Shown here: positions 17,844 to 42,828 of the stretch, piece by piece | Position numbering within the stretch: the stretch's first letter is position 1 | Layout of the letters: the number at the start of each line of letters is the position of its first letter | DNA from: a virus | DNA length: 64,000 bases | Strand: one strand, 5' to 3' | IMG/VR virus record: IMGVR_UViG_3300036772_000425 | Span: 266,924 to 330,923 of that record | Position numbers and translations under genes: made by a program | The notes under the pieces: model-generated | The model's database searches: none | Seen by the model: only the letters and a program-made list of their open reading frames with translations | What the model was told of the DNA's origin: nothing

Positions 17844-18203
17844 CTACGATTGAAACTGGAGATGATCCGGATCATGTTCGCGCGGTCCAGCGGGATGGGG
17901 CCAATTCTCCTCGAACCATCCCTCGAACTTCCAGGGTTCGCCCAACCACACCATCCTATCAACTATCTCCGCAGGTATCCCCATCCGCAGAAGGGAAACA
18001 TCATCATAGCGCGACGGCACGTCCTGCAGATCCTGCACGGTGAGGGCGGTGCCGTTGGAAAAGCGCCAACCGATCTCATCGATGGGACCATCCCGCAGAC
18101 CGAAGCTCGAGCACATGGCCTTGACCGCCGGTGTAAGGGCGGTGTCGAACGCATCGATTGATTCCTTGATGAGGGTCCGCAATCCCCTGACCGTGATCAT
18201 CAT
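17844..18203 (-). CDS. Small protein with capsid-targeting-like N-terminus (119 aa)
   Basis: MMITVRGLRTLIKESIDA matches the R-x-L-R-x-(L/I)-I-x-E motif family described in findings. ATGA overlap with the upstream gene. Confidence 0.4.
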   Translation of the reverse strand: MMITVRGLRTLIKESIDAFDTALTPAVKAMCSSFGLRDGPIDEIGWRFSNGTALTVQDLQDVPSRYDDVSLLRMGIPAEIVDRMVWLGEPWKFEGWFEENWPHPAGPREHDPDHLQFQS

Positions 18204-18511
18204 GCTCTAACTACTAGGTGGTCGAAGTACTTCAACAGCCGGTAATCACCCGTTCGATCCCAAATCCTGGCCGCAACGTCCTGCATCGGAACCGAGCAGT
18301 AGCACCGATCGCAGACATGCCAGTGGGTGTCCTCAAAGAAGAAGAAACTACCGGCGGCCTCGAGCAGAACCAGGCATGCTGCACACTTGGCGTCTTCACG
18401 AATGTTGAAATTACCGTGACGGCCGACCCACCTCTTGGGCGGGAACCACGAAAACCACCTCTTCCTGAACCAATCGACCATGTCAGGATCGTACCTCGTG
18501 CTCAGCAGCAT
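18200..18511 (-). CDS. Hypothetical Cys/His-rich protein (103 aa)
   Basis: CAAC...HWHVCDRCYC motif. Coupled by ATGA overlap to the downstream ORF. Confidence 0.4.
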   Translation of the reverse strand: MLLSTRYDPDMVDWFRKRWFSWFPPKRWVGRHGNFNIREDAKCAACLVLLEAAGSFFFFEDTHWHVCDRCYCSVPMQDVAARIWDRTGDYRLLKYFDHLVVRA

Positions 18512-19310
18512 GGCATCGCTCGCACAGGACGATGCCCGAAACGTCGTTGTCGAGGTGGTAGTCAGTCACCCACTCGGAGATGCTGGACTTCCGTTCGAAG
18601 TCACCGTCGGCACGGGTCGGATCGACCTCCCCGAACAGTGCGATGCCCCTGTGAAGGATGCTGGCGAAGCGTTCCTGGTCGTGATGGACCTCCAACCCAG
18701 GGCCGCGCGCTCCGCACTTCTGGCACTTGAACCCGGATGCCCGCAGTTTCGGGTACGTCCACACCGAGTGGAGCCGGGCTCGGGCCAGGGGTTGCAGGGC
18801 GGAAGAACCACCGCGCCACTGGGAATGAGTCGGACCGGTGAGAGGGACGATGCTCCCGGTTTCCCAGTAAGATTTCATGTCATCCGACCTCTTTTTCAAG
18901 AGTTCAGGTTGTGCCACGATCGTAGCGCTCCCTTTGATCCCGTAAGCTTGAATTCGAGAATCAGTTTCCTTGGTGCCGTTCTTGTTCCAGGCCACCCAAT
19001 CTCCGTCAGAGATCTGTTGCCTTCGAACGTCCTGACTCTTCTGCAGGGCTTCCTTGTTGTGCCCCCAGTTGTTCTTCACCCGGGAAGCATGGCCTCGGAT
19101 GTACTCCATGAACCCACGTTCGAAGCCGAAGTACTTCGTTGCTCCGCCACAACCGCATGCACAGGTGGGCGCTTTCCCACCGTGCTTCGCTTCGATCAAC
19201 TGCTGCTTCATGATCTCCGTGAGCTGTTGAGCGGTGCCGTGAGCATTGCGGAAATGGAGAGAGACAGCGGTGTAGCTCTTGAACGCGCCGCCGCAGTTGG
19301 GACACTTCAT
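18483..19310 (-). CDS. HNH homing endonuclease with N-terminal zinc finger and a NUMOD3-like repeat
   Basis: 275 aa. N-terminal MKCPNCGG...HFRNAHG...CACGCG zinc-finger module. NGTKETDSRI is a NUMOD3-like repeat. C-terminal CQKCGA...LEVHHDQE...CERCHAAEH is an HNH motif. Free-standing, immediately downstream of the tube gene. Confidence 0.8.
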   Translation of the reverse strand: MKCPNCGGAFKSYTAVSLHFRNAHGTAQQLTEIMKQQLIEAKHGGKAPTCACGCGGATKYFGFERGFMEYIRGHASRVKNNWGHNKEALQKSQDVRRQQISDGDWVAWNKNGTKETDSRIQAYGIKGSATIVAQPELLKKRSDDMKSYWETGSIVPLTGPTHSQWRGGSSALQPLARARLHSVWTYPKLRASGFKCQKCGARGPGLEVHHDQERFASILHRGIALFGEVDPTRADGDFERKSSISEWVTDYHLDNDVSGIVLCERCHAAEHEVRS

Positions 19311-19376
19311 GTCATGACTTTAACACTTGATACAGTACTGTACAGGATGTTTGTTATCGCAAGGTCAAGAAACGCC

Positions 19377-19416
19377 AAAAGGCCCTTTCGGGCCTTCTGA
19401 ATCAGCCTTTCGGCTT
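19377..19416 (-). terminator. Tandem hairpin terminators downstream of the tail tube gene
   Basis: GGCCC-TTTC-GGGCC hairpin followed by AGCC-TTTC-GGCT. On the minus RNA the first is followed by UUUUGGCGUUUCUUG. Confidence 0.5.
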
Positions 19417-19430
19417 GTCGAATCGCAATC

Positions 19431-19919
19431 TCAAAATTGCAGAACCGCGTTGTCAAAACGCAGCGTCAGGCTGATCTCGGCCGGCGTTCCGTCCTCGTAC
19501 GTCAGTTCACCGAAGTTCGCCTCGGTGATGAAGGCACCCTTGATGTCCCACAGTTCGACGACTGTACCGACGGGATCCAGCAGCTTGAGCTGCACGTCCC
19601 GCTTGTAGAAGTCTGCGTAGCCCGACCGGCCCGATACGGACTCAAAGTGAAGCCTGACCCACTCCATGATCTGCTGCGCGCCGGACGGCGCGATCGGATC
19701 GTGCAGGGTGACGGCCATGGTGTTGAACTTCGTCAGGCCGGCCAGGTAACGACGAGCGTTGATGAAGGGCATCTCCACCTCCTCGGTCGTCACGGTCGGT
19801 CGGGCCGTGGTCTTGATGATGTAGGCATCAATGCCCTCGATCATCAGAACCCAACGGTTCTTCCGCTTGGGTTCGAATTTGACTGGCAGCATTGACGTGA
19901 CATCGAGCGTTTCGGCCAT
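19431..19919 (-). CDS. Tail tube protein (T4 gp19-like)
   Basis: 162 aa. C-terminal ELWDIKGAFITEANFGELTYEDGTPAEISLTLRFDNAVLQF parallels gp19 EIKGLWPTNVGELQLDWDSNNEIQTFEVTLALDYWE. ATG start with GAGAGA-type RBS. Confidence 0.75.
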   Translation of the reverse strand: MAETLDVTSMLPVKFEPKRKNRWVLMIEGIDAYIIKTTARPTVTTEEVEMPFINARRYLAGLTKFNTMAVTLHDPIAPSGAQQIMEWVRLHFESVSGRSGYADFYKRDVQLKLLDPVGTVVELWDIKGAFITEANFGELTYEDGTPAEISLTLRFDNAVLQF

Positions 19920-20053
19920 TTTCTCTCAATTCCTTTCAGGAGTGCCTTTTGGGTCCCCTTCAAGTGGTAGCTAGGAGGATCAGCAAGATTCGTATCTGAA
20001 AATGTGCAATGATCGGCCTGAACATAAGGATCGGTGGATTACCATGATCAACG

Positions 20054-21718
20054 ATGGCACCCGTCCCTGGGCAGGTTCTGCGCGTCGCCCAGTGCCCACT
20101 GTGCAATTTTTCATCAAAAAGGTTGACGACCTTCGGGACGCATGTGTCGGATGTCCACGGAAGTTCCGTCCAGGCAGAGTGGGATCGGTTGCACGGTGGA
20201 CCGCGGATCTGCGCCTGCGGTTGCGGCAGGGTGACCACATGGCTCGGTTGGCACGCAGGTTACTCGACCCTGCTGAGGGGCCACAACGCAAGCATCTACA
20301 CGGTGTACAGCACGGAAGAAGCGCAGCGGCTCGCTGCCACGCGTGGGATGAACTGGTCAGGCCAACCCGGGTGGTCCAAGGGCCTCACCAAGGAGACGGA
20401 TGACAGGGTCCGCATGCGTGCAGAGGCGACTGCCGTGGGCCGACAGACCGCCATCGACAGTGGTAGGATCTCCGTCTGGTCCAAGGGCCTCACCAAGGAG
20501 ACGGATCAGAGGGTCGCCGACGCAGCCGCGGCGAAGGGACGGGCACACGCGGACGGAACGTTGGTCGTCTGGTCCAACGGGCTCACCAAGGAGACCGACG
20601 TCAGGGTCGCTGCGATGGCTCGGGCCAACGCCATCACCCACCAACGGCGCGCCCTACGCGATCACCTGGACCGGATCAAGAGGTTGAGCCTCGATGAGAT
20701 CCGTGATCGGGTGGAGGGAGCAGGGAACATGGAGCTCATCGCAGCCGACGGGTACGTGAACGACCTCACCTCGGAGGTTCGGGTCAGGTGCAGGCTATGC
20801 ACGCAGGAATCCATCATCAACGCCAGGCAGGCGTTCGCGTCCAGGTGCCAGCACTGCGATCCTTTTGGGTCCGCGGCGCAGGCCGAGCTCGCCCGGACCG
20901 TCGAGGGTTGGGGGTTCCGGATCCGGCGCAACGATCGATCGACCATCCGGATGAACGGCAGCGTGGCGGAGCTGGACATCCTCATCCCGGAGCATGGGTT
21001 GGCCATCGAGTACAATGGGCTGTACTGGCACAGCAGCCTGAAAAAATCGTCAGCGTACCACCAGAACAAGTCGGACGCGTGCAAGGCGGTTGGGATCCAA
21101 CTGGTGCATGTCTTTGAGGATGAGTGGCGTGACCGGCGCACGATCGTTGAGGGCATGCTCATGCACCGCCTGGGAATGTCAACCCGGTTCGGAGCAAGGG
21201 TCTGCAGCATCGGCGCCCTGGAGCCTGGGGAACGCCGACGATTCTTCCGGCAGAACCACGTGGACGGTGACGTGCCCGCGGTGCATGCCTTGGGCCTCTA
21301 CCACCCAACCGCCGGGCTGGTGATGGCCATCAGCCTCCGGAGGCCGATCCTACGCAAGAAGCACGCCGGTTTCCTTGAGGTTGCCCGGCTGGCGACTGCG
21401 TCCGACACAGCGATCGTCGGCGGGCTGTCGAGGCTGTCGCGTGCAGCCCTGGCATGGGCACAGAATAATGGACATGCGGGCCTAATGACCTATGTTGACA
21501 CCCGGCACGGGAGCGACGGTGGGTCCTGGGTGGGCCATGGATGGGCACCCAAGGGGGAAACGCCGCCGCGATGGTGGTGGACTGACATGGAAACACGGTT
21601 CAACCGGTTCAAGTACCGGGCTGACCGTGCTCGGAACATGTCAGAGACGCAGGTCGCCGAGGAGGCGCACGTCGTGAAGATCCACGGATGCAAGAACCTG
21701 ATCCTTGAAATGATCTGA
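20054..21718 (+). mobile_element. Free-standing homing endonuclease gene: zinc finger + 3x NUMOD3-like repeats + DUF559/PD-(D/E)xK nuclease domain
   Basis: 554 aa on the plus strand inside a minus-strand block. N-terminal CPLCNF...HVSDVHG...CACGCG is the same module as the 18483..19310 HNH protein. Three repeats WSKGLTKETDDRV / WSKGLTKETDQRV / WSNGLTKETDVRV. C-terminal ELDILIPEHGLAIEYNGLYWHS...VHVFEDEW matches the DUF559 (Vsr-like) endonuclease motif. Confidence 0.8.
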
Positions 21719-21760: not shown

Positions 21761-22060
21761 TCAGCTCTTCCGGTACGTACCTGAACCGCCCGATGCGGGC
21801 TGCTGCGCCTGCATGTTCTTCGCAGCCTGCATGAGCCGGGTCACCCCGTTCAGCAAGGATTGAACCTGCTCTCCCGACTGGGAATCACCGCTCGCCTGGT
21901 ACATCTCACTGAGAGCCTGCTTCGCCGCGCTCAGGTGCTGGACGAACTTCTCCATCGATGCCTGGGCCCTGAAGCCCGGCGCGCCGGCCTCGTTCAGGGT
22001 TTCTTCCATGATGGTTCGGAGTTGGCTCCCGGTCAGCCTGACGACCCTGTTCTGTTTCAC
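21761..22060 (-). CDS. Small protein with CTS-like N-terminus (99 aa); putative internal head protein
   Basis: MKQNRVVRLTGSQLRTIMEETLNE. Paralogous to the adjacent 22057..22359 ORF. Confidence 0.5.
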   Translation of the reverse strand: MKQNRVVRLTGSQLRTIMEETLNEAGAPGFRAQASMEKFVQHLSAAKQALSEMYQASGDSQSGEQVQSLLNGVTRLMQAAKNMQAQQPASGGSGTYRKS

Positions 22061-22359
22061 CGCTTGCCTCCCGACATGATCCTCTGCATGGCTCCGTCGA
22101 CCTTGAAGGCCAGCGTCTCGAGTTCCTTGTGGATCGCGTTGAGCTCGTTCATGTGCTCGGGAGGTGCTTCATGGATCGCCTTCTGGAACATGTGGTCCGC
22201 CTCCCACAGCTTGGTCACCCCCTGCTTCAGGAAGCTACCGATCTGTGAGCCTGGGTACAGCTCGTTGAGGGTCTGCACCGTTTCTTTGAGCAGGTCAGGC
22301 CGGACGGATCGAGCCTCTTCGTTGATCAGTTTTCGGAGTTGCTGCCTGGAGATCTTCAC
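22057..22359 (-). CDS. Small protein with CTS-like N-terminus (100 aa); putative internal head protein
   Basis: MKISRQQLRKLINEEARSV. ATGA-type overlap with its neighbour. Confidence 0.5.
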   Translation of the reverse strand: MKISRQQLRKLINEEARSVRPDLLKETVQTLNELYPGSQIGSFLKQGVTKLWEADHMFQKAIHEAPPEHMNELNAIHKELETLAFKVDGAMQRIMSGGKR

Positions 22360-22393: not shown

Positions 22394-25393
22394 TCAGGGC
22401 TGCTGCTGGTTCAGGTTGTTCGTCACGACGAAGTCCAGTGACACGAACTCGATCGTCTTCGTGGGCATCACGAAGATCTTCCCGCGGATGGTGTTGTTCT
22501 CGATGTCCTGCTGCGTCGTCGTCGAGCTGTCGATCACGACCTTAAACCGATCGAGACCGGCGAGCGCCTGGATCCTCTGCAGACCGGGCGTGACTGCTGC
22601 CGTGAACTTCGCGAGGGTGACGTCCCTGTTGGGCTCGAAGAGGATGGTGTTGGAGATGTCGCGAACCTGACGCCTGATCTCGATCAGCAACCGGCGGACG
22701 TTGACCCTGTCGAGGGCCGATGCAGCCTGCTGCAGCGTCTTCTGTCCCCAGACCACGACGCCGCCGGTGGGGTTGGTACCACCCTGCGAATTGCCCGGGA
22801 AGGCGACGAGCGGGTTGATGTTGACGTCGTACAGGACGTCCATGTTGTTCTTGGACAGCTTGACCCGGGCCTCCAGGGTCGATTGCAGGGCTCCTCGGGT
22901 GAAACCGGCCGGAGCGAACCACGGATGACCCACCTTGTCATTCAAGGCCATGGCTCCCAGGACAACGACTGACGGTGGGACGACCACGTTAGTCTGCGTC
23001 GTCGGATCCGGGATCACAACGTCCGGGAAGTAAGCTGCTCCGAAGCTGCTGTCCAGGGCCCGGCTTGCGAAGTTCTGGGCCGTCAGGGTGACGCTCGGCA
23101 GCTGGTCATCGCTGGTCACCAGTTCACCGTTGTTGTCAAGCTGCTCTACGTCCATGATGTAGAGAGCATCGAACCTATCCTGCACCGCTGAGATGGCGGC
23201 ATCGGTGACCACTGGGTTCCGAGCGCCAGGAATGGCAAGGAGCTGCAGGTCGGTGTTCGTGGTCTCACCCATGATCTGCAGGGCCTTGGCGTAGGCCTGG
23301 ACCGTGGGTCCGTTGTTGGATCCACGGTTCGGATCGGACATGTCTCCCTCGACGGCTGCGTTGGTGAGCTGCGATTCATCCATGTCAAAGATGTTGATCC
23401 CATCCGAACCGCCCTGGACGAAGAAGCTCCACTTCAGGAAACGCCTGTTGGCCTGGATGAAGTCGTCTGGGATGACGGCCCGCGTTTTGTTGGCATCGTT
23501 TGCCACGATGCCGCCGGCGCGGACATAGGTTGCGTTGACCCACTGGTTGGAGTCAGCCACACCGGTAGAGCCGGTGATGACCTGGACGTTCATCAGGCTG
23601 AAGAAATCTCGGTTGAAGAGATCGTTGTCGATCGCTCCGTTCGCCACCGTGCTCGGGGTCCCGGTGTTGTCAGTGGACAGGAAGTCCTGCACATCAACCC
23701 GGTGGTTCGGGAAGTACTGCACGGTCGCGTTCATCGAAAGGTTGGGCAGAACGGACAGGTTCGGTGTGGCCAAGCTGGCCACGTGTTCGTACTGAACGCC
23801 CCAGTACAGGAGCGGGTTGACCTGCAACGTGGCTCCTGAACCCTGCGTCAGGTTCTGCCGGAACGGAACGGGCGGTTGCTTGACACGGGTCCATGCTGAT
23901 GAATCGATGACGGTGGCTGCCGTGGGCGCCACCAACGGAGCTGTGCCCGCCGTCATCAGGTGGTTCGCTCCACGCATGCCGACCGGCATGGCGCTCGGGT
24001 CTGCCTCGCCGGTGTCCACGCTGGAATCCATCTCGACCCGGATCAGGTTCGACTGGTTCAGGTAGTTGCCGTCCACCGCGATCTTCTGGGCTGTCAGGCC
24101 CCTGTCGAAGTCGAAGTACGAGTGTTGGTCGCCCACCACCTTGGCGATGTACCGATCATCGCTTGGGTTCAGGCTGAGCCCACGCCACTGTTCCAGGTAG
24201 ACGGGACTTGCGTCGTTGTCAGTCCAAGATCGAACGACCAGGTCGAATGACGGGTATGGGTCGTTGGAATCTGTCGAGATCGCAATGTTCTCGATGGCCA
24301 ACTTGTACAGCGTTGACACACCGGAACCGTCATCGAGGGCGTGCACCCTGAACAGGTTCTGAGCGCGGCCGCCGAAAGGTTGGCTGACAACCCAGGGTGA
24401 AAGAGCGTGGGTGAAACGATCCTGGAAATCCTCGAAATCCGGTGCCGTTGAGGTGCCGGAATCCCGAGCCTGAGACCCGGTGAGCAGGAATGCATCGTGC
24501 TCAAGGACCTGACCCACCATGGAACTGGTGAGGACTCCGATGCCCGTCACTACAGCGGTGGCTGGGTGGATGTCCCATGATGCGTAGACGAAGTGACCGG
24601 CCTGCTGAAGCTTGGTCTGATCGGTGTTGAGAACGTTTGCGAAGTAGTTCGGCGACGTCATGTCGAACGATGCCGTGATCACGTTCGGGTACAGCGGATC
24701 GGTGCCCTTGTGACCGTTGAGAAGCATGACAAAGTCCTGCTTGGCAACGCTCGATTGGAGAAGAACCGTTGAACCGACGGAAGCTCCGTTCCCGTTGCTG
24801 GCGACAGCGTTCGACCCGGGTCGAACGCTGGGAGCGACGGACGAGGACAGGGAGATGATGACGCCTGATGGAGCCATCACAACCCCCCGGAGGATGGGCT
24901 GTGCCGCAGAGCCTGACTGCAGGCCCGCCGAGCTGAAGACGGTTGACCCAGCTGACTCTGACATGAGGCAACCGAGGAAGTACGTCCGACCGAGCGGGCC
25001 GCCCAAGTTCGCGTACGGGTTGGAGCTCAGGATGCCTTCGTTGTCGGGATCCGGCTGCTTCTCACCCACCACGAAACCAGAGGTTCCGACGATGCCGGTC
25101 TGGGTGTTGCGCTGCTTCCCGTCTCCGGCACCCAGGATCCTGAGGTAGGTCAGGGCCTGAGCGTTCCGCAACCATTCACTGACCGCCAGCGGCCCGAACT
25201 TCTGGCCGTCGGACGGCCCGAACTTGGCGTTGAAGTCAGACTGCAATCCGACCGTGATCGGAACGTAAGCCGGACCCTTCACCGCGGTGCCGATGACACC
25301 GGCTGGGACGCCCGTCGGTTGCTGAGCAACCGGGCCCGAGAGATCGATCTCCTGAGCTGTGACCCCCGCTGCACCGAACTTCAACTGTGCCAT
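22394..25393 (-). CDS. Tail sheath protein, copy 1 (gp18-like, 999 aa)
   Basis: C-terminus NRVNVRRLLIEIRRQ...IEFVSLDFVVTN parallels gp18 DRINVRRLFNMLK...INYITLNFVATA. N-terminus TGVPAGVIGTAVKGPAYVPITVG. Preceded by GATAGTTAGGAACGAGGCAGGACAGGC-ATG. Confidence 0.85.
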   Translation of the reverse strand: MAQLKFGAAGVTAQEIDLSGPVAQQPTGVPAGVIGTAVKGPAYVPITVGLQSDFNAKFGPSDGQKFGPLAVSEWLRNAQALTYLRILGAGDGKQRNTQTGIVGTSGFVVGEKQPDPDNEGILSSNPYANLGGPLGRTYFLGCLMSESAGSTVFSSAGLQSGSAAQPILRGVVMAPSGVIISLSSSVAPSVRPGSNAVASNGNGASVGSTVLLQSSVAKQDFVMLLNGHKGTDPLYPNVITASFDMTSPNYFANVLNTDQTKLQQAGHFVYASWDIHPATAVVTGIGVLTSSMVGQVLEHDAFLLTGSQARDSGTSTAPDFEDFQDRFTHALSPWVVSQPFGGRAQNLFRVHALDDGSGVSTLYKLAIENIAISTDSNDPYPSFDLVVRSWTDNDASPVYLEQWRGLSLNPSDDRYIAKVVGDQHSYFDFDRGLTAQKIAVDGNYLNQSNLIRVEMDSSVDTGEADPSAMPVGMRGANHLMTAGTAPLVAPTAATVIDSSAWTRVKQPPVPFRQNLTQGSGATLQVNPLLYWGVQYEHVASLATPNLSVLPNLSMNATVQYFPNHRVDVQDFLSTDNTGTPSTVANGAIDNDLFNRDFFSLMNVQVITGSTGVADSNQWVNATYVRAGGIVANDANKTRAVIPDDFIQANRRFLKWSFFVQGGSDGINIFDMDESQLTNAAVEGDMSDPNRGSNNGPTVQAYAKALQIMGETTNTDLQLLAIPGARNPVVTDAAISAVQDRFDALYIMDVEQLDNNGELVTSDDQLPSVTLTAQNFASRALDSSFGAAYFPDVVIPDPTTQTNVVVPPSVVVLGAMALNDKVGHPWFAPAGFTRGALQSTLEARVKLSKNNMDVLYDVNINPLVAFPGNSQGGTNPTGGVVVWGQKTLQQAASALDRVNVRRLLIEIRRQVRDISNTILFEPNRDVTLAKFTAAVTPGLQRIQALAGLDRFKVVIDSSTTTQQDIENNTIRGKIFVMPTKTIEFVSLDFVVTNNLNQQQP

Positions 25394-25658: not shown

Positions 25659-28600
25659 TCAGACGAAGGCGATGCCGCTGTTGGTGATGATGAAGTCAAC
25701 CGCGATGAATTCAATCACACGGGTGGGCACCACCACGATCCGGCCGTTCAGCTTGTTCAGGTCGATGTCGGCCTGCGTGTTGTTGGTCTCATTCATGATG
25801 ACCTGGAAGGATTCGATCCCGGCCTGTGCCTGGATCAGGCCCAACTGCAGGGCTGATTGCGAGACGAACTTGCCCCAAACCTCGGGCGTGTTCTGCTCGA
25901 ACTCCAGGCCCAAAGCGATGTTGATGACGATCCTCTTGACCTCCAGCAGCAACCGGCGGACGTTGACCCGATCGAGCGCGGAGCTCTTGATCTGCAGCGT
26001 CTTCTGTCCCCAGACCACGAATCCCTGCCTGGGGAAGGTGGCGATCGGATTGATCCGGCTGTCGTAGAGACGATCCCTGTCCGAGGAGTTCAAGCGGACC
26101 TCAACGTTGCTGACGAAGTCGAGAGCAGCCCGGTTGAACCCAGCCGGCGCGAACCACGGGTACCCCACCCGATCATTGAACCCAAGGGCTCCGAGCGCAG
26201 CGATGGACGCTGGCACCTTGATGCGGCGGCGGTTGGTGGAATCTTCGATGAAGACGTCCGGGAAGTACGTACCGACGTAGTTGTTGTCGATCGCTCGGGT
26301 GTCCAGGCCGACCGCTGTCTGGTTGACGTCGGGCTTCAGGGTCGCATCGTCGAAGAGGCGAACCTGGTTCTCATCGAATTTCTCAAGGTCCATCACGTAG
26401 TAGGCGAGCCCGTAGGCCCTGACCTTCTGTCCCGTGTAATCGCTGATGAAAGGTTCCCTGATACCCGGAAGGAGGAGAACGTTGTGGTTGACCGCCATCG
26501 GATCCGTCATGATGTTGACAGCCGCTACGTACGAGGCGACCGTGGAGTTCTGCTGCCCTGCACCCGACTGGTTCGCTGCGAATGCTGCTGGGATGAACCC
26601 GGGTGCCGCCTCGCCGACGAAGGAGCTCGCCTTGTCGTTCATCCGACGTGCATCGGGATCCAGCGTGTTGACGCCGTCCCAACCGCCCGCAAGGAAGGTG
26701 GTGAATTTTGCGTATGGGCTGAAACGGTTGAAGACAGAGGCGGATGCCTTACCGAGCAGGGTTGCAAACGAAATGCGAGGACCGATGACAGGATCCTGGA
26801 TCGTGTACTGGGTGGTGTCCACCTTTCCGTTGCGGATGTAGGCTGCCTCCCTCATGTGCGTGTCGACAGACGCCGTCAGGTCGGTCAAGGAACTGTTGCC
26901 GAGCGCAACCCGGGCCAACGTGAACTTGTTGTTGTTCAGCACGTCGGCACCCGACCCGGTGACCACCGTGTCCAGCTGCTGGATCCCCTGCAGCTGGGTC
27001 AACGATGAGAGCAGGGAGTTCGGGAACGTCTCCAGGTTCGGATCGAGCGGGATATCGTTCCTTTCGAACTTGACACCCCAGTAGTACAGCGGAACAGAAA
27101 GCTCCGTGATGCCCGGTTCGCCGAACCACGATGCCGCGGTCGGACGTTGGCCCTTGGTCACCTTGGAACGCATCGGCACGGGGGGCACGATTGCTCCGCT
27201 CAGTGCCTGAGCAGACCCGGTCACAACACCGGAGATCCTCACGAGCCCACCGGTCTGCGCGGAGTCCGTCAAGGAATCGTTCGTCTTCAGGATCACCGCT
27301 CCACGGAAACCGAACGGAAGCGCCTGCGGCGGCGTCAGGCCACGATCGACCTGGGAATTCATGACGATCCTGACAAGTGCCGAGTTGTTCTGGTACTTCC
27401 CCTGCGTCACGATCCGTCGCTCATCCGGATCGGTTGAATCAAAGTTGAAGTACACCTTCCGATCTCCGATCACCTTCGCAACGTAGTTCTGTGCGTTGGG
27501 ATCGAGCGAGCAGTTGTTGAACTGCTCCAGCACCAGCGGGCTGGTGTCCGTGTCAGACCAGGAACGAACCTGGACTGCGAAGGTCCCGTACTTGTTGGCA
27601 TCGTCCAGGGATGCCTTCAGGCTGACGATGGAGATCTTGTACAGGTTGTTTGCGTACGATCCATCGTCGAGGGCCTCAAACCTGAAGAGATCGTACTCGG
27701 TGGCACCGAATGGTTGGCTGATGAAGTTCGTGGTCGAGGGAGCCTTGAACCGGGTATCGAACGCTCCGAACGCCTTGCGGTACTGCAGGGTGGCATCGCC
27801 AGAGTTCAGGCTCACGTTGTTGGTACCCGAGACCACGGCGACGACTGAGTTCGCCACTGTCGCAATCTCATCATCGACAGCGAAGTCTGAGTACAGCAGG
27901 TGCTTCGTGGTCGCAAAGCGATCCGGATCAGAGTTCAGGACCTTGGCGAAGTAGTCAGTTGAGCTCGGATCCAACGAAGCCGTCAGGATGTGAACCCCTG
28001 ATTGACCGTCGTTGTTGTAGTAGCTGTCGCCCAACGATGTTGAGATGATCAGCTTGAATTTCCCGTTTGAATCAGTCGCACCTGCGTCCAACATGGTGTT
28101 GACGGCGCCCGCTGACATGTCACGGTTGTAGTCAGTGACCATCAGCTTCGACCCAGAGGCCATCAGAACAACACCCCTGATCAGGTTGACGATGGACGAT
28201 GCGAACGAATCGTTGTCCGTGAAGTCAGCCTGGCCGAACGCTTCGTTCGCCTGCTTGGTGTGCCGAGCCACGATGTACTGAACGCTGTGATCGTACCGAC
28301 CGAGCCTGTCCTGGGACGTACCGTCCAGGTGGTACCCTGCGTTGAGGACCCGACCCTGCACGCTGGCACGGGTGATGTCTGTTGCGCTGGCGTTGTTACC
28401 GGCTCCCAGGATCCTCATGAAGGTCAGGGCCGACCGGTTGTTGAGCCAGTTGTTGGCTGCGTAGGGCCCGAACCTTTTCGGATCAAGGTTGCCGAAGATG
28501 CTGACGAACTGATCCCAGTTCCCCACCGTGACCGGCACGAATGCTGGTCCTCGGTTGGAGGTGCCGATGACACCGGCCGGAACACCAACAGGGCCTTGCG

Positions 28601-28667
28601 GTGCTGGAGCTGACTGGTCAATCTCCCGATCGAAAAAGTTGGGAGACCTGAAAGACTGTGCGGGCAT
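25659..28667 (-). CDS. Tail sheath protein, copy 2 (gp18-like, 1002 aa)
   Basis: Paralogue of copy 1: N-terminus VGVPAGVIGTSNRGPAFVPVTVG, C-terminus DRVNVRRLLLEVKRI...IEFIAVDFIITN. ATG start with GAGGAG RBS. Confidence 0.85.
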   Translation of the reverse strand: MPAQSFRSPNFFDREIDQSAPAPQGPVGVPAGVIGTSNRGPAFVPVTVGNWDQFVSIFGNLDPKRFGPYAANNWLNNRSALTFMRILGAGNNASATDITRASVQGRVLNAGYHLDGTSQDRLGRYDHSVQYIVARHTKQANEAFGQADFTDNDSFASSIVNLIRGVVLMASGSKLMVTDYNRDMSAGAVNTMLDAGATDSNGKFKLIISTSLGDSYYNNDGQSGVHILTASLDPSSTDYFAKVLNSDPDRFATTKHLLYSDFAVDDEIATVANSVVAVVSGTNNVSLNSGDATLQYRKAFGAFDTRFKAPSTTNFISQPFGATEYDLFRFEALDDGSYANNLYKISIVSLKASLDDANKYGTFAVQVRSWSDTDTSPLVLEQFNNCSLDPNAQNYVAKVIGDRKVYFNFDSTDPDERRIVTQGKYQNNSALVRIVMNSQVDRGLTPPQALPFGFRGAVILKTNDSLTDSAQTGGLVRISGVVTGSAQALSGAIVPPVPMRSKVTKGQRPTAASWFGEPGITELSVPLYYWGVKFERNDIPLDPNLETFPNSLLSSLTQLQGIQQLDTVVTGSGADVLNNNKFTLARVALGNSSLTDLTASVDTHMREAAYIRNGKVDTTQYTIQDPVIGPRISFATLLGKASASVFNRFSPYAKFTTFLAGGWDGVNTLDPDARRMNDKASSFVGEAAPGFIPAAFAANQSGAGQQNSTVASYVAAVNIMTDPMAVNHNVLLLPGIREPFISDYTGQKVRAYGLAYYVMDLEKFDENQVRLFDDATLKPDVNQTAVGLDTRAIDNNYVGTYFPDVFIEDSTNRRRIKVPASIAALGALGFNDRVGYPWFAPAGFNRAALDFVSNVEVRLNSSDRDRLYDSRINPIATFPRQGFVVWGQKTLQIKSSALDRVNVRRLLLEVKRIVINIALGLEFEQNTPEVWGKFVSQSALQLGLIQAQAGIESFQVIMNETNNTQADIDLNKLNGRIVVVPTRVIEFIAVDFIITNSGIAFV

Positions 28668-28751: not shown

Positions 28752-30053
28752 TTAGTCCTCCACCAAGACGATCGTCAACCCGAGCAGATCCTGATCTGGG
28801 ACCAGCACGGTCTCGCCCGTTGAACCGTTGATGTTCCTGACCCTAACTAGGCGTACGACCTTTTTTCCGCGTCCGTCGATCCCAGTGACCTTCTTGTACC
28901 TGGCCGGATGGGTTCCTCGCGGGTACGACCTCAAGGCCGGATCTTCTGGGTTGATCTCCTGGGAGTCTGGGTACAGGCGCGTCCTGTTGATCATCCTCTG
29001 GTCAGATCGGGTGTTCGGGCCATCATCGCCCGAGGTGAGCGGCAACGTCGGATCGTCCGCACCCAGAAAAGGATCATCGATGGAATCGTTGCCGATCGAC
29101 TCGCTGCCTCCGGTTGACACCTGGAAGCTGATCGTGGGTGAGGAAATGTAGCGCCTGACGGGTACCGGTGCGCCCGGAGTACCGGATGCGAGGATGTAGC
29201 CGGGCACGTTGATCACCAGCTTGTACCGGATGAGCCGTTCCTCCTGCGAGTAGTCATCGGTGTTCGTGTCAGCAGTGTACTGGTTCCCATCCACGCTGGC
29301 CATGAACCAGTAACCTTGGGGGGTGTCCAATCGCCAGCTGTTTCCCTGCGGCAGGAACGAGGAGATCATAGCCTCCAGCATCTGGTTCATGTGCCCAGTG
29401 TACTGGGACCACAGGGTGACATCGTATTTTGCGGTGAAGAACTGGGGAGCTGGGATGACGATCGTCTCGTAAACGTTCTTCTGACGGTTCGGCAGCAGCA
29501 GACCGCCCTGCTGCACGGTCGGATCGTCCTCCAGATCTCCGATCTCACCCAGGGTGCTCAACTGCCCGGGTTCGACCTCTGAGGGGGTCACCGCGAGGTT
29601 GGCCTGATTTCTCAGCATCAACCGGTTGATGAGTCCTTGGTACGCCCTGTCCGATTTATCGAGCCGGCGGTTGATGACAATCTCGCCGGTTTGCTGGTTG
29701 ATGCCCCTACCGGTGATGTCCAACGCAGGATCCTGGGTCAGGGTGGTCCGGACGGCGGTGATCAACGGAAGGATCAGCGTGTTGTTCCGATCCTTGAGAG
29801 CCTTGAGACGCTTGTTCAGCGCCCATTTCTCCCCCGCAAAGAACACCACCGGGACCCGTTTCTGGTCGACCCCGTTACCTGACACGATGAACCTGATCTC
29901 CTCGTTGAACAGCTTGAACAGCGCCCGATCAACATCCTCAATCCCGACCGCGGGTACGACCACGTCCGGAGCCGGTTTCCCCTGGTAGCCCGTGGGCAGC
30001 CCAGAGAACAGGTCGAAGCGACGCTGTGGATCGGCGGTGTACCTGGTCGTCAT
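28752..30053 (-). CDS. Putative neck / tail-completion protein (433 aa)
   Basis: Structural-module ORF upstream of the sheath (the position of T4 gp13-15). No catalytic motifs. Overlaps the next gene's stop. Confidence 0.45.
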   Translation of the reverse strand: MTTRYTADPQRRFDLFSGLPTGYQGKPAPDVVVPAVGIEDVDRALFKLFNEEIRFIVSGNGVDQKRVPVVFFAGEKWALNKRLKALKDRNNTLILPLITAVRTTLTQDPALDITGRGINQQTGEIVINRRLDKSDRAYQGLINRLMLRNQANLAVTPSEVEPGQLSTLGEIGDLEDDPTVQQGGLLLPNRQKNVYETIVIPAPQFFTAKYDVTLWSQYTGHMNQMLEAMISSFLPQGNSWRLDTPQGYWFMASVDGNQYTADTNTDDYSQEERLIRYKLVINVPGYILASGTPGAPVPVRRYISSPTISFQVSTGGSESIGNDSIDDPFLGADDPTLPLTSGDDGPNTRSDQRMINRTRLYPDSQEINPEDPALRSYPRGTHPARYKKVTGIDGRGKKVVRLVRVRNINGSTGETVLVPDQDLLGLTIVLVED

Positions 30054-30727
30054 GTTCCGTCCTCGTCGTAGAACGCGCTCGTGTCAGAAGCATCGTCATC
30101 GCCCCTCGGAGATATCTCCTTCGCTCCGGTGATGGGTCGTCCCAGCACCTGTTCGTTCTGGAGGTCCCTTACATCTCCCGTCACCCCGTCAGCATTCGTG
30201 GCTTGGCCACGCTGCTGGTGGAACGTTGACTGCACTGCGTCCGGTTCAGGGTGAGAGATGTCGGTGGGACCGATCACGGGTGCCGTGAACAGCGTGCCCC
30301 TTGCCTGGGTACCGATCAGCTTCACGCCATCCTTGTGCTCGGCGAGACCGTAGATGTTCCGCATCACCACCTTCTCGGTGATCTCATAGAAGATGTCGCT
30401 GAATGAGAAGAAGTCACCGATGGACAGCGCGATCCCCTTGTCAACAAGGTCACGGTACTGGACGAAGACCTCGACCTTGTACTGAGCGTCAACGCCGAAC
30501 TCATTGATTCGGGTGTCGGTCTGGAAGTTGGAATCCACCAGGGCATCCAGCTCGATCGGCTTGTCAAACACCTTCTGGGTCGCCTCGTTGTAGACCGTGT
30601 CAGTCTTCGTCTTGAGCTCGTTGATGGGGTAGTAGAAGATGCGTTGCCCGACGACGTCCTTGATCAACTCCTTCGTGATGTCGGAGATGAAATTCAGCTC
30701 TCGGGTGGTGAGGAACAGCCTGCTCAT
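30050..30727 (-). CDS. Putative neck / tail-completion protein (225 aa)
   Basis: Tightly coupled (ATGA overlap) to 28752..30053. Acidic C-terminus. Confidence 0.45.
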   Translation of the reverse strand: MSRLFLTTRELNFISDITKELIKDVVGQRIFYYPINELKTKTDTVYNEATQKVFDKPIELDALVDSNFQTDTRINEFGVDAQYKVEVFVQYRDLVDKGIALSIGDFFSFSDIFYEITEKVVMRNIYGLAEHKDGVKLIGTQARGTLFTAPVIGPTDISHPEPDAVQSTFHQQRGQATNADGVTGDVRDLQNEQVLGRPITGAKEISPRGDDDASDTSAFYDEDGT

Positions 30728-41706: not shown

Positions 41707-42435
41707 TCAATCTAACGCCAGTTCTCTCTGTGATTTCTTCAGACGCTTTAGCGTTGAGTACGACACTCCGTGTTCCTTCATCAGGTCCACCAACGGTGTG
41801 TTGACGATCGCTTGTAATAGTTCTGAGCTCGGTTCGAACTTCGTGGAAGCTGAAATCTTCGATCGTGTCTCTGTTGAAGGTTGACGACGATGTGAACATG
41901 CATCAGAACATGTTGTCCGAACATGGTACCTCCTGTTCTGAGAGAACTCAACCTTGAAAGAGGTGCCGCAATGGCACGTTCGAACCTCGACAACCTCATC
42001 CTTCGCACCCAACCGACGCTCATGAGCGATGGGCCAGCATTTCCGGAGCTTGTCTCGGGTTTCAGGTCCTAGAACCCGACCGACGCAGTGGGTGTTACCC
42101 TTCAGAGCTTCGGAGAGTGTTTGACGGGCTGCATCTGTCATTCCTCTTCCGCACGGATCAATGTTGTAACCCTTGTTTGAGTTCATGGAATCCAGCTCGG
42201 AGATCCAGAACCTTTCTCGATCATCAATCGTTGAGTCTGAGCACTCTTCAATGATTTCGAAAATGAAGTTCTCAACACCGTGCTTTCGCATTGAACGATA
42301 AAGAGGATATTCCACTCTCGTGTCTTTCGACGCGTAAAGATGACCCGCCTTACGTTGAGCGAAGTTGTAGGTCTGCCCTACGTAAACTTTACCATTCACC
42401 TGATTGGTGATCTTGTAGATGTACCGCATGAACAA
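41707..42435 (-). mobile_element. GIY-YIG homing endonuclease (Seg/I-TevI-like), free-standing
   Basis: 242 aa. YIYKITNQVNGKVYVGQTYNFAQRKAGH...NKGYN is a GIY-YIG catalytic module. C-terminal DNA-binding region. Located directly next to the tmRNA gene. Confidence 0.8.
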
Positions 42436-42469
42436 CCTTACTACATGTTCACATGATATATCGTGCGAG

Positions 42470-42828
42470 TGGAGCAGCCGGGAATTGAACCCGGGTCCGC
42501 AGCGCGTCTTCCGATCACTTCTTCACAAGCTTGGCCCCTTTTGCTGCTCGGCCCAGGGACAGGCCTAGAGGACGAATTTCACGTCTTTATCCCCAATGAC
42601 GGTGCCTGTACGCCGGTCACCTGACGTTTTCCGACCCAGGACGCTCGGTCGCGCGCTCAGCATTCTGTTCCGAGGTCGCTGAGGACCCGATCCGTCACGC
42701 CGCGAGGCGGAGCGGAAGTGCGCCGTTGTCGTTGGCAGCTATACGTCACTTGGGTTTTTAGACCGGACCCTCGTGCACCGGTGCTTGCAGTGAAAGGCTT
42801 CAGAACCACGTCGAAACCTGTCTGCCCC
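42470..42828 (-). ncRNA. ssrA: Phage-encoded tmRNA (one-piece SsrA)
   Basis: Minus-strand RNA 5'-GGGGCAGACAGGUUUCGACGUGG... (compare E. coli GGGGCUGAUUCUGGAUUCGACGGG) ...3' GGACCCGGGUUCAAUUCCCGGCUGCUCCA. Acceptor stem GGGGCAG/CUGCUCC with a G3:U70 pair (alanine identity) and a T-arm CCGGG-UUCAAUU-CCCGG. Internal tag reading frame GUAUAGCU-GCC AAC GAC AAC GGC GCA CUU CCG CUC CGC CUC GCG GCG UGA encodes (A)ANDNGALPLRLAA. About 359 nt. Confidence 0.8.

Follow-up and report, generated by a model that had tools for sequence, protein, structure and literature searches.

The tail tube gene of an uncultured jumbo phage is bracketed by two genes, here called A and B, that are probably free-standing homing endonuclease genes (HEGs) whose cleavage activity is predicted and which sit in two slots on either side of it. 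They lie in a stretch of 64,000 nucleotides (positions 266,924 to 330,923 of IMG/VR record IMGVR_UViG_3300036772_000425), referred to below as the window. Exact copies of both proteins are found on a JGI contig of 340,433 bp, which makes the source an uncultured jumbo phage. Both genes begin with a homologous zinc module and carry unrelated nuclease domains, HNH in A and Hef-type in B, and both occupy their slots sporadically in related phages. The locus is a well-supported, essentially ordinary HEG hotspot in which parts are swapped. The open reading frames of A, the tube gene and B, with A and B on either side of the tube, were confirmed in coordinates and strand as the preliminary description of the window had given them (Table 1).

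Occupancy of the two slots and variants in the tube gene

Among cultured phages the best relative of the window's sheath protein reaches 34% identity, so no cultured relative was available for comparison, and megablast of an 8.5-kb region of the window found no DNA-level match in 50,697 deposited phage records. The comparison set consisted of 80 IMG/VR loci retrieved with the tube protein (tube 86–98% identical); together with loci L001–L004 and the window this gave 85 loci, on each of which we placed A, B and the flanking genes. B is carried by 27 loci and absent from 52, with the flank too short in the other 6. The upstream slot, on the sheath side, is empty at 80–230 bp in many loci (80 bp in L053, 90 bp in L056, 101 bp in L064); when filled, it measures 1.8–3.9 kb and holds a B-type gene, antisense every time. 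The downstream slot, on the baseplate side, is empty at 143–212 bp in L071, L075, L078, L048 and L049. Elsewhere it holds a zinc-finger HNH gene (25 loci), a zinc-finger Hef-type paralog on the tube strand (14 loci; the copy in L003 is 37% identical to B) or a gene that joins the zinc module to another C-terminus (17 loci, mostly TnsA-like), and in L032 and L034 HNH and Hef genes stand in tandem. The TnsA-like class has a PD-(D/E)xK domain that matches Pfam PF08722 above threshold (4e-14). The closest relatives, L005 and L006 (tube 97–98% identical), have neither A nor B, and homologs of the small genes o99 and o100, which in the window delimit the B insertion on its far side, lie directly upstream of their tube gene. 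When the window is compared with its relatives, DNA homology breaks at, or at most about 10 nucleotides from, the tube start and stop codons.

Decay could be followed as well. The HNH gene of L077 (4353–4731) has an internal deletion of about 560 bp compared with its near-identical relative in L076 (4365–5345), a homing endonuclease gene caught in decay, and L007 retains HNH fragments. Between L003 and the window the tube is 87% identical, the sheath 66% and the B ortholog just 50%: B diverges much more quickly than the two structural genes. The comparison with relatives bears out two proposals of the preliminary description: a hotspot of endonucleases at a conserved structural gene, seen in the presence/absence polymorphism of both slots, the tandem pairs and the remnants, and modular domain shuffling, seen in alternative occupants that carry the same N-terminal module with different nucleases. 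The idea that B is a conserved core gene, suggested by its first two homolog contexts, which were syntenic, was rejected on the empty sites of the 80-locus survey. The TnsA-like class, found in the slot of A at L070:1116–2024, L025:1306–2223 and L035:5139–6053, brings a nuclease that is unusual for a free-standing homing-type gene.

These observations fit a conventional homing cycle. The N-terminal double-zinc module and the W-x-K-G-L-T-K-E-T-D/helix repeats would most likely bind DNA and set target specificity. They are fused to what is predicted to be the cutting domain, HNH in A and a Hef-type Vsr-like domain in B, where it lies between a C4 zinc ribbon and a Mom-like GNAT domain. By analogy with Seg and Mob of T4 and Hef of phage U5, the enzyme would cut an allele without the HEG during co-infection, within the tube gene or close to it, and recombinational repair would transfer the HEG to the recipient together with neighbouring tube sequence. 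Silent changes at the tube 5′ end (nucleotides 40–80 or so, with 42 and 48 the best) may then either protect the carrier or be co-converted with B.

The variants themselves were sought in 65 distinct tube alleles, 21 with B and 44 without, with phylogeny handled just by a split into two sublineages. At nucleotide 42, AAA in place of AAG occurs in 17 of 21 alleles with B and 3 of 44 without (Fisher p about 3e-9); at nucleotide 48, GAA in place of GAG occurs in 17 of 21 and 9 of 44, respectively. Nucleotides 60 and 72 come next in association, and all of these changes are synonymous. The strongest B-associated variants fall in the first 80 or so nucleotides, at the end of the gene adjacent to B. 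The associations at nucleotides 42 and 48 recur independently in the sublineages with 162-residue and 163-residue tubes; in the latter the whole first 70 or so nucleotides are B-associated. For A, a weak association was found at the tube 3′ end (p about 3e-4). The variants at about nucleotides 40–80 are candidates for target-site immunity or for a co-conversion tract; they fit either, and homing is expected to produce both. Nucleotides 40–80 or so are where we would predict the target of B. Taking nucleotides 42 and 48 as the mapped target would over-interpret the data, since the associated stretch of about 70 nucleotides in the 163-residue sublineage fits co-conversion equally.

A further difference lies just before the tube ATG. 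B-less loci (L006:6961–7000, L009, L047 and others) have the motif GAATACTTA...GGTGACAGGAGA there, possibly a late promoter with a ribosome-binding site, and it is replaced in the window and in most loci with B. As GAATACTTA is not enriched in the window, we make no promoter claim.

The zinc module and the two nucleases

BLASTP aligned residues 2–134 of A with residues 13–130 of B at 29% identity (E = 2e-12). The region they share has three parts: a C2H2-type finger (C-x2-C-x12-H-x4-H in both proteins), a second C-x-C-x-C...H site, and W-x-K-G-(L)-T-K-E-T-D segments with a helix after each, of which A has one and B three (helices at 117–136, 152–166 and 183–209 in the B model). The Smith–Waterman score between the two modules was 144, against 28 ± 5 in shuffles. 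With all Cys and His masked it was 71 against 27 ± 4.5 (maximum 53 among 2,000 shuffles), about 10 standard deviations above, and shuffles with Cys and His fixed in place gave 37 ± 8.6 (maximum 86). Because the score survives masking, the N-terminal modules are truly homologous beyond metal-ligand spacing. Their description as near-identical fits the motif skeleton alone; at 29% identity they appear to have diverged anciently. That A and B are unrelated and alike in generic Cys/His spacing alone, a notion to which the low identity and the part of the score supplied by Cys and His lend something, has a practically negligible chance of being right, refuted as it is by both kinds of shuffle. Against it also stands an exhaustive search with the module alone, which retrieved 378 representative protein clusters and, at E ≤ 1e-10, still 130.

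The predicted zinc ligands are strongly conserved. Those of A are invariant across 59 homologs, and among 60 B sequences no change occurs at C14, C17, H35, C53, C55, C57 or H77, while H30 is nearly invariant. Of the 59 A-family members, 20 have a first finger that Pfam C2H2-type models match (best E = 9.3e-6), and the predicted structures of A and B show the finger as two short strands followed by a helix, with predicted zinc sites. The name NUMOD3-like, which had been given to the repeats, was not upheld: taken by themselves, the repeats of A, B and the TnsA-like type had no match to Pfam NUMOD3 (PF07460) at E ≤ 10, while the GIY-YIG open reading frame elsewhere in the window matched it in the same Pfam search.

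Module identity is 51–76% within a gene class and 28–32% between most classes; HNH and TnsA-like genes stand closer, at 46% on average. Residues 1–149 of A can be aligned with the TnsA-like protein of L070 (35% identity, E = 3e-27), beyond which the two are unrelated, so that, as judged from these alignments, the exchange of HNH for TnsA-like nucleases in relatives appears cleaner and more recent than that between A and B. Metagenomic proteins show the module in tandem duplicates (P0243, P0252), in company with I-HmuI NUMOD-like and PvuRts1I-like domains (P0297), or fused to Mom (P0305), bona fide DUF559 (P0260), DUF6527 (P0325) or DUF723 (P0275). It is nearly absent from the deposited phage records, with one weak match in a 484-kb uncultured phage. 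It seems to be widespread as a DNA-binding module associated with nucleases, and has no name; it is undescribed and has no Pfam model, and its near-absence from deposited genomes means that a description could aid annotation. It might also serve as a programmable scaffold for binding DNA. In the public (JGI) annotation B has 434 residues and begins at Met121, which removes the zinc-finger module (20054–20413, plus strand); the 554-residue reading is correct because 59 homologs align from about residue 1.

The nucleases are unrelated to each other, as had been proposed. The C-terminus of A has a zinc-bound HNH signature, HH...N...H with two CxxC pairs, and was assigned to the ββα-Me fold in an AlphaFold model of high predicted local distance difference test score (pLDDT 91). 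In its family C196, C199, H209, H210, C263 and C266 are present in 59 of 59 members and H267 and H271 in 58, with N255 in 40 and His at that position in 8. PHROG HNH families match A weakly (2e-4 to 0.04), and Pfam PF01844 stays below threshold (E = 0.096; 13 bits against a cut-off of 21.4), defeated by an insertion of about 45 residues between HH and N. With moderate confidence we assign A as an HNH nuclease with predicted activity. It shares the ββα-Me fold, the two CxxC pairs and HH...N...H with zinc-containing phage HNH nucleases such as the T5 SciA nicking endonuclease, GVE2 HNH and McrA, but differs from them in the insertion and in the N-terminal zinc-finger targeting module.

B has at least 394 homologs; in the 120 that were listed, identity is 39–53% and nearly every one spans the full length. 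PHROG 3339 ('homing endonuclease') matches residues 249–550 at 4e-57 and PHROG 559 matches at 8e-41. By tblastn B matches 412 phage records, of which the top annotated ones are labelled Hef-like or homing endonuclease; the top matches include AR9/PBS1 and Campylobacter phages, the latter with 10–12 matching places per genome. The AlphaFold2 model (pLDDT 88.7) has a Vsr-like nuclease fold and matches the DUF559-group structure 3hrl, and the B family profile finds 3r3p by sequence (5.8e-3). All nuclease residues listed in Table 1 are invariant in 60 sequences, apart from N321 (59 of 60). D308, N321 and H326 align with D196, N208 and H213 of I-Bth0305I, and the position of the first EDxHD Glu (E278 in B) is Glu in 32 of 60; D356 may be a Vsr-D97-like alternative to the last EDxHD Asp. 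H336 is flanked by the invariant Y335 and K339 (window 21059–21070). A phmmer search of B against PDB sequences gave a sole match, to the S27e zinc ribbon, which we regard as spurious; GCN5 and I-Bth0305I were reached through the family profile.

The preliminary description had named this domain DUF559 from the motif LIPEHGLAIEYNGLYWH, which is indeed present in B, as the HNH motif is in A. Pfam DUF559 (PF04480) matches 0 of 60 B orthologs, with seven matching MTES_1575 and one Vsr, while P0260, another protein with the zinc-finger module, does pass it. Phage Hef-type enzymes have been assigned to the Vsr-like EDxHD family (Taylor et al. 2011, PMC3239194), and Vsr, DUF559 and 3r3p have been grouped together (Steczkiewicz et al. 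2012, PMC3424549), so DUF559 is right at the level of the fold and the family of B is Hef-type/EDxHD.

The C-terminal 340 or so residues of B (zinc ribbon, Vsr-like nuclease and Mom-like domain) are homologous to Hef of phage U5 and to Hef-like enzymes including AR9 g146, the hef genes of Campylobacter phage CP81 and F-LimIII/VII/VIII/X of Dickeya phage LIMEstone1, which are free-standing, intergenic and beside conserved genes; unlike those genes, B runs antisense to the genes around it. One of the LIMEstone1 HEGs, the Hef-like F-LimVIII, adjoins a tail tube gene (PMC3296691). AR9 g146 is 26% identical to B over the nuclease and Mom-like part (E = 1e-45) and has other zinc-ribbon repeats where B has the double-zinc module and GLTKETD repeats; in AR9 it accompanies the introns of the virion RNA polymerase β′ gene, which is in three pieces, and stands beside an annotated group I intron VSR endonuclease gene. 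The EDxHD prototype I-Bth0305I (PDB 3R3P; Taylor et al. 2011), by contrast with B, is intron-encoded, has NUMOD2/helix-turn-helix binding domains and lacks GNAT.

The alternation at these slots recalls the T-even phages, in which different endonuclease classes likewise take the same intergenic site by a conserved gene. There mobC/mobE of T4 are reportedly replaced by segH/hef in related phages, a finding from 2005 ascribed to Sandegren and colleagues. In the present loci the slot downstream of the tube is taken by turns by HNH, Hef-type and TnsA-like genes, and these share one homologous, putatively DNA-binding module, which Seg, Mob and Hef do not. NUMOD modules, according to work attributed to Sitbon and Pietrokovski (2003), are said to be common to GIY-YIG and HNH phage endonucleases. 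The module described here is not NUMOD by profile, being made of a C2H2-type finger, a CxCxC..H site and GLTKETD repeats. MobE and Hef both target nrdB (PMC2988022), and ICP1 phages show HEG domain shuffling and HEG islands (Barth et al. 2023, PMC10448857). The NUMOD and ICP1 cases embody the same concept, a portable DNA-binding module with varied nucleases in clusters beside essential gene modules. HEG hotspots and module shuffling being well known, the locus adds examples, not concepts. What it offers is a route of HEG diversification in which a single portable zinc-finger module, the putative targeting part, has been paired with nucleases of three or more unrelated folds (HNH, Vsr-like/Hef and TnsA-like), in genes that compete for the same two slots by a highly conserved structural gene and for which every stage of invasion and decay is seen in metagenomes.

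The Mom-like domain and other readings of A and B

The preliminary architecture of B was incomplete, having missed a conserved C-terminal domain that makes up a third of the protein. The domain is recognized as GCN5 by the family profile (2.6e-4), as Mom-like by PHROG (3.2e-5) and weakly as XF1762 by NCBIfam (3.6e-5); its predicted structure has a GNAT fold, with Mom among the best and longest structural matches. Like Mom of phage Mu, which carries out tRNA-dependent adenine hypermodification, it has the GNAT fold and, by a weak alignment, invariant candidate equivalents of R111, D149 and R151, but differs in lacking the essential helix-turn-helix-like insertion, in that the residue aligned to the catalytic Ser is not invariant, and in marginal sequence similarity. 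It may act as an enzyme, a DNA reader or a scaffold. Its recognition joins two literatures on one protein family, that on the 'Hef-like homing endonuclease' and that on the 'Mom-REase fusion' (Mom joined to a restriction endonuclease).

The conserved domain allows a rival reading in which B is mainly a single-polypeptide restriction-modification-like conflict module, incidentally placed by the tube gene: the Mom-like GNAT domain would hypermodify the phage's own adenines and the fused nuclease would attack unmodified host or competitor DNA. Such a role, which is compatible with homing, is exactly what has been proposed for jumbo-phage Mom domains fused to nucleases of the restriction endonuclease fold, a fusion that B reproduces (Iyer et al. 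2021, PMC7824862). In an hhalign alignment, itself weak (E = 0.022), the Mom-essential residues R111, D149 and R151 fall on R445, D482 and R484 of B, each present in 60 of 60 B sequences by the positions of that alignment, and S124 falls on S459. That last position is Ser in 44 of 60 orthologs and Gly in the L003 downstream paralog, and MAFFT and hhalign place Mom S124 differently on B. The helix-turn-helix-like insertion of Mom (residues 175–209 or so), which is required for Mom activity (PMC13219725), is absent in alignment from B, the L003 paralog, AR9 g146 and CP81 hef-6. The AR9 nuclease and Mom-like unit, moreover, sits with introns of an essential gene, and the site-specific presence/absence of B with linked flanking variants is typical of HEGs, not of defence genes. 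We consider it unlikely that B is mainly such a conflict module.

A related idea, which we think quite unlikely to hold, is that Hef-type HEGs including B are two-enzyme selfish elements with restriction-modification logic built in. The Mom-like domain would modify adenines in or near the element's own target, or act as a base-flipping reader, and so render the carrier immune to its own nuclease. If true, this would explain how a free-standing HEG that leaves its target undisrupted can persist under purifying selection.

Several observations weigh against reading A and B as plain HEGs. The conserved Mom-like domain is unexplained by a simple homing model. The single-nucleotide associations in the tube gene could be plain linkage, given that phylogeny was treated just as two sublineages. 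Full-length conservation at 40–60% identity across hundreds of contigs indicates long-term purifying selection, more than a purely parasitic, quickly decaying element needs. The nuclease assignments have their own gaps: Pfam gave no match on B even at E ≤ 1, Pfam HNH matches 0 of 59 A-family members at E ≤ 0.01, and Foldseek of A against the PDB was not significant. In B, the fifth EDxHD residue (D222 of I-Bth0305I) aligns with the invariant H336, so the Hef-type active site may differ from the prototype.

Improbable in our view is that A and B are inactive relics, fixed HEGs that no longer cleave. Decay after fixation is common among HEGs and remnants are present in relatives, and the closest known homologs are just 53% (B, among the matches listed) and 64% (A) identical. 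The window copies, however, are full length, keep all family-invariant residues and give well-folded predicted structures. Highly improbable is a domesticated or core role for A, B or both, with a tail-module function (regulation, or DNA processing like that of terminase-associated HNH proteins) and vertical inheritance. Hundreds of full-length homologs with invariant catalytic and zinc residues would suit it, as would the constant position and orientation of B when present; against this, B is missing from 52 of 79 scorable loci including the closest relatives, the slots of 80–230 bp are truly empty, alternative occupants carry unrelated nucleases, remnants occur, and B diverges, by the identities given above, far faster than tube and sheath.

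Neighbouring genes and feature coordinates

Table 1. Features of the tube-gene locus and related elements, in window coordinates
Feature	Position	Strand	Remarks
o103 (18200–18511) and o119 (17844–18203)	17844..18511	-	window-specific open reading frames; within the tube-to-o77 insertion together with A
Gene A	18483..19310	-	275 residues; zinc-finger + HNH gene, probably a free-standing endonuclease; slot downstream of tube gene
A, predicted HNH nuclease domain	18486..18743	-	residues 190–275 or so; insertion of about 45 residues between HH and N
A, N-terminal module	18864..19310	-	residues 1–149; C3, C6, H19, H24; C50, C52, C54, H74; one W-N-K-x-G-T-K-E-T-D repeat with helices
Terminator-like hairpin	19375..19400	-	between tube stop codon and A start; 11-bp stem then T-run (pattern scan)
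Tail tube gene (T4 gp19-like)	19431..19919	-	162 residues; PHROG tail tube 1.6e-28, Pfam gp19 8.7e-5
Tube nucleotides 42 and 48	19872..19878	-	Lys14 AAA, Glu16 GAA; synonymous, B-associated; window has the 'B+' allele
Gene B	20054..21718	+	554 residues; zinc-finger + Hef-type (Vsr-like/EDxHD) + Mom-like GNAT; slot upstream of tube gene
B, zinc-finger module	20054..20353	+	C14, C17, H30, H35; C53, C55, C57, H77
B, three W-S-K/N-G-L-T-K-E-T-D + helix repeats	20366..20680	+	residues 107–116, 142–151, 173–182; read from sequence
B, C4 zinc ribbon	20774..20863	+	C246, C249, C265, C268; precedes nuclease; four Cys invariant; weak S27e zinc-ribbon match
B, Vsr-like/DUF559-like/EDxHD nuclease domain	20873..21169	+	E306, D308, E319, N321, H326, Y335, H336, K339, H352, D356
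B, GNAT-fold, Mom-like domain	21170..21715	+	C-terminal; 180 residues, conserved
o99 (21761–22060) and o100 (22057–22359)	21761..22359	-	two small conserved genes; far boundary of B insertion
Tail sheath gene	22394..25393	-	
GIY-YIG + NUMOD3 open reading frame	41707..42435	-	Pfam 2.8e-9 and 3.6e-6
tmRNA gene	42469..42828	-	tag ANDNGALPLRLAA; abuts GIY-YIG + NUMOD3 open reading frame

B is the sole plus-strand gene amid a run of minus-strand structural genes, and its G+C content (0.62–0.66) is somewhat above that of its flanks. A promoter scan returned two promoter-like sites, near the chance expectation of 0.9, neither positioned to serve A or B. The open reading frames o103 and o119 had no tblastn match in the 84 related loci, and o103 none in Pfam or PHROG; the two might represent cargo, a new pair of genes or non-coding sequence.

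Beyond the sheath gene lies a second tail-sheath paralog (25680–28628, minus strand) that is 33% identical to it, a pair also found in relatives; in L003, GIY-YIG endonuclease genes stand beside and between the two sheath paralogs. The C-terminal half of A has a weak tblastn match (E = 0.001) at 29891–30088 (minus strand), inside a 433-residue open reading frame of the structural region (28752–30053), probably by chance. The GIY-YIG gene reported earlier beside the tmRNA is indeed there, a third homing-type endonuclease gene in the window, of a different class and lacking the zinc-finger module.

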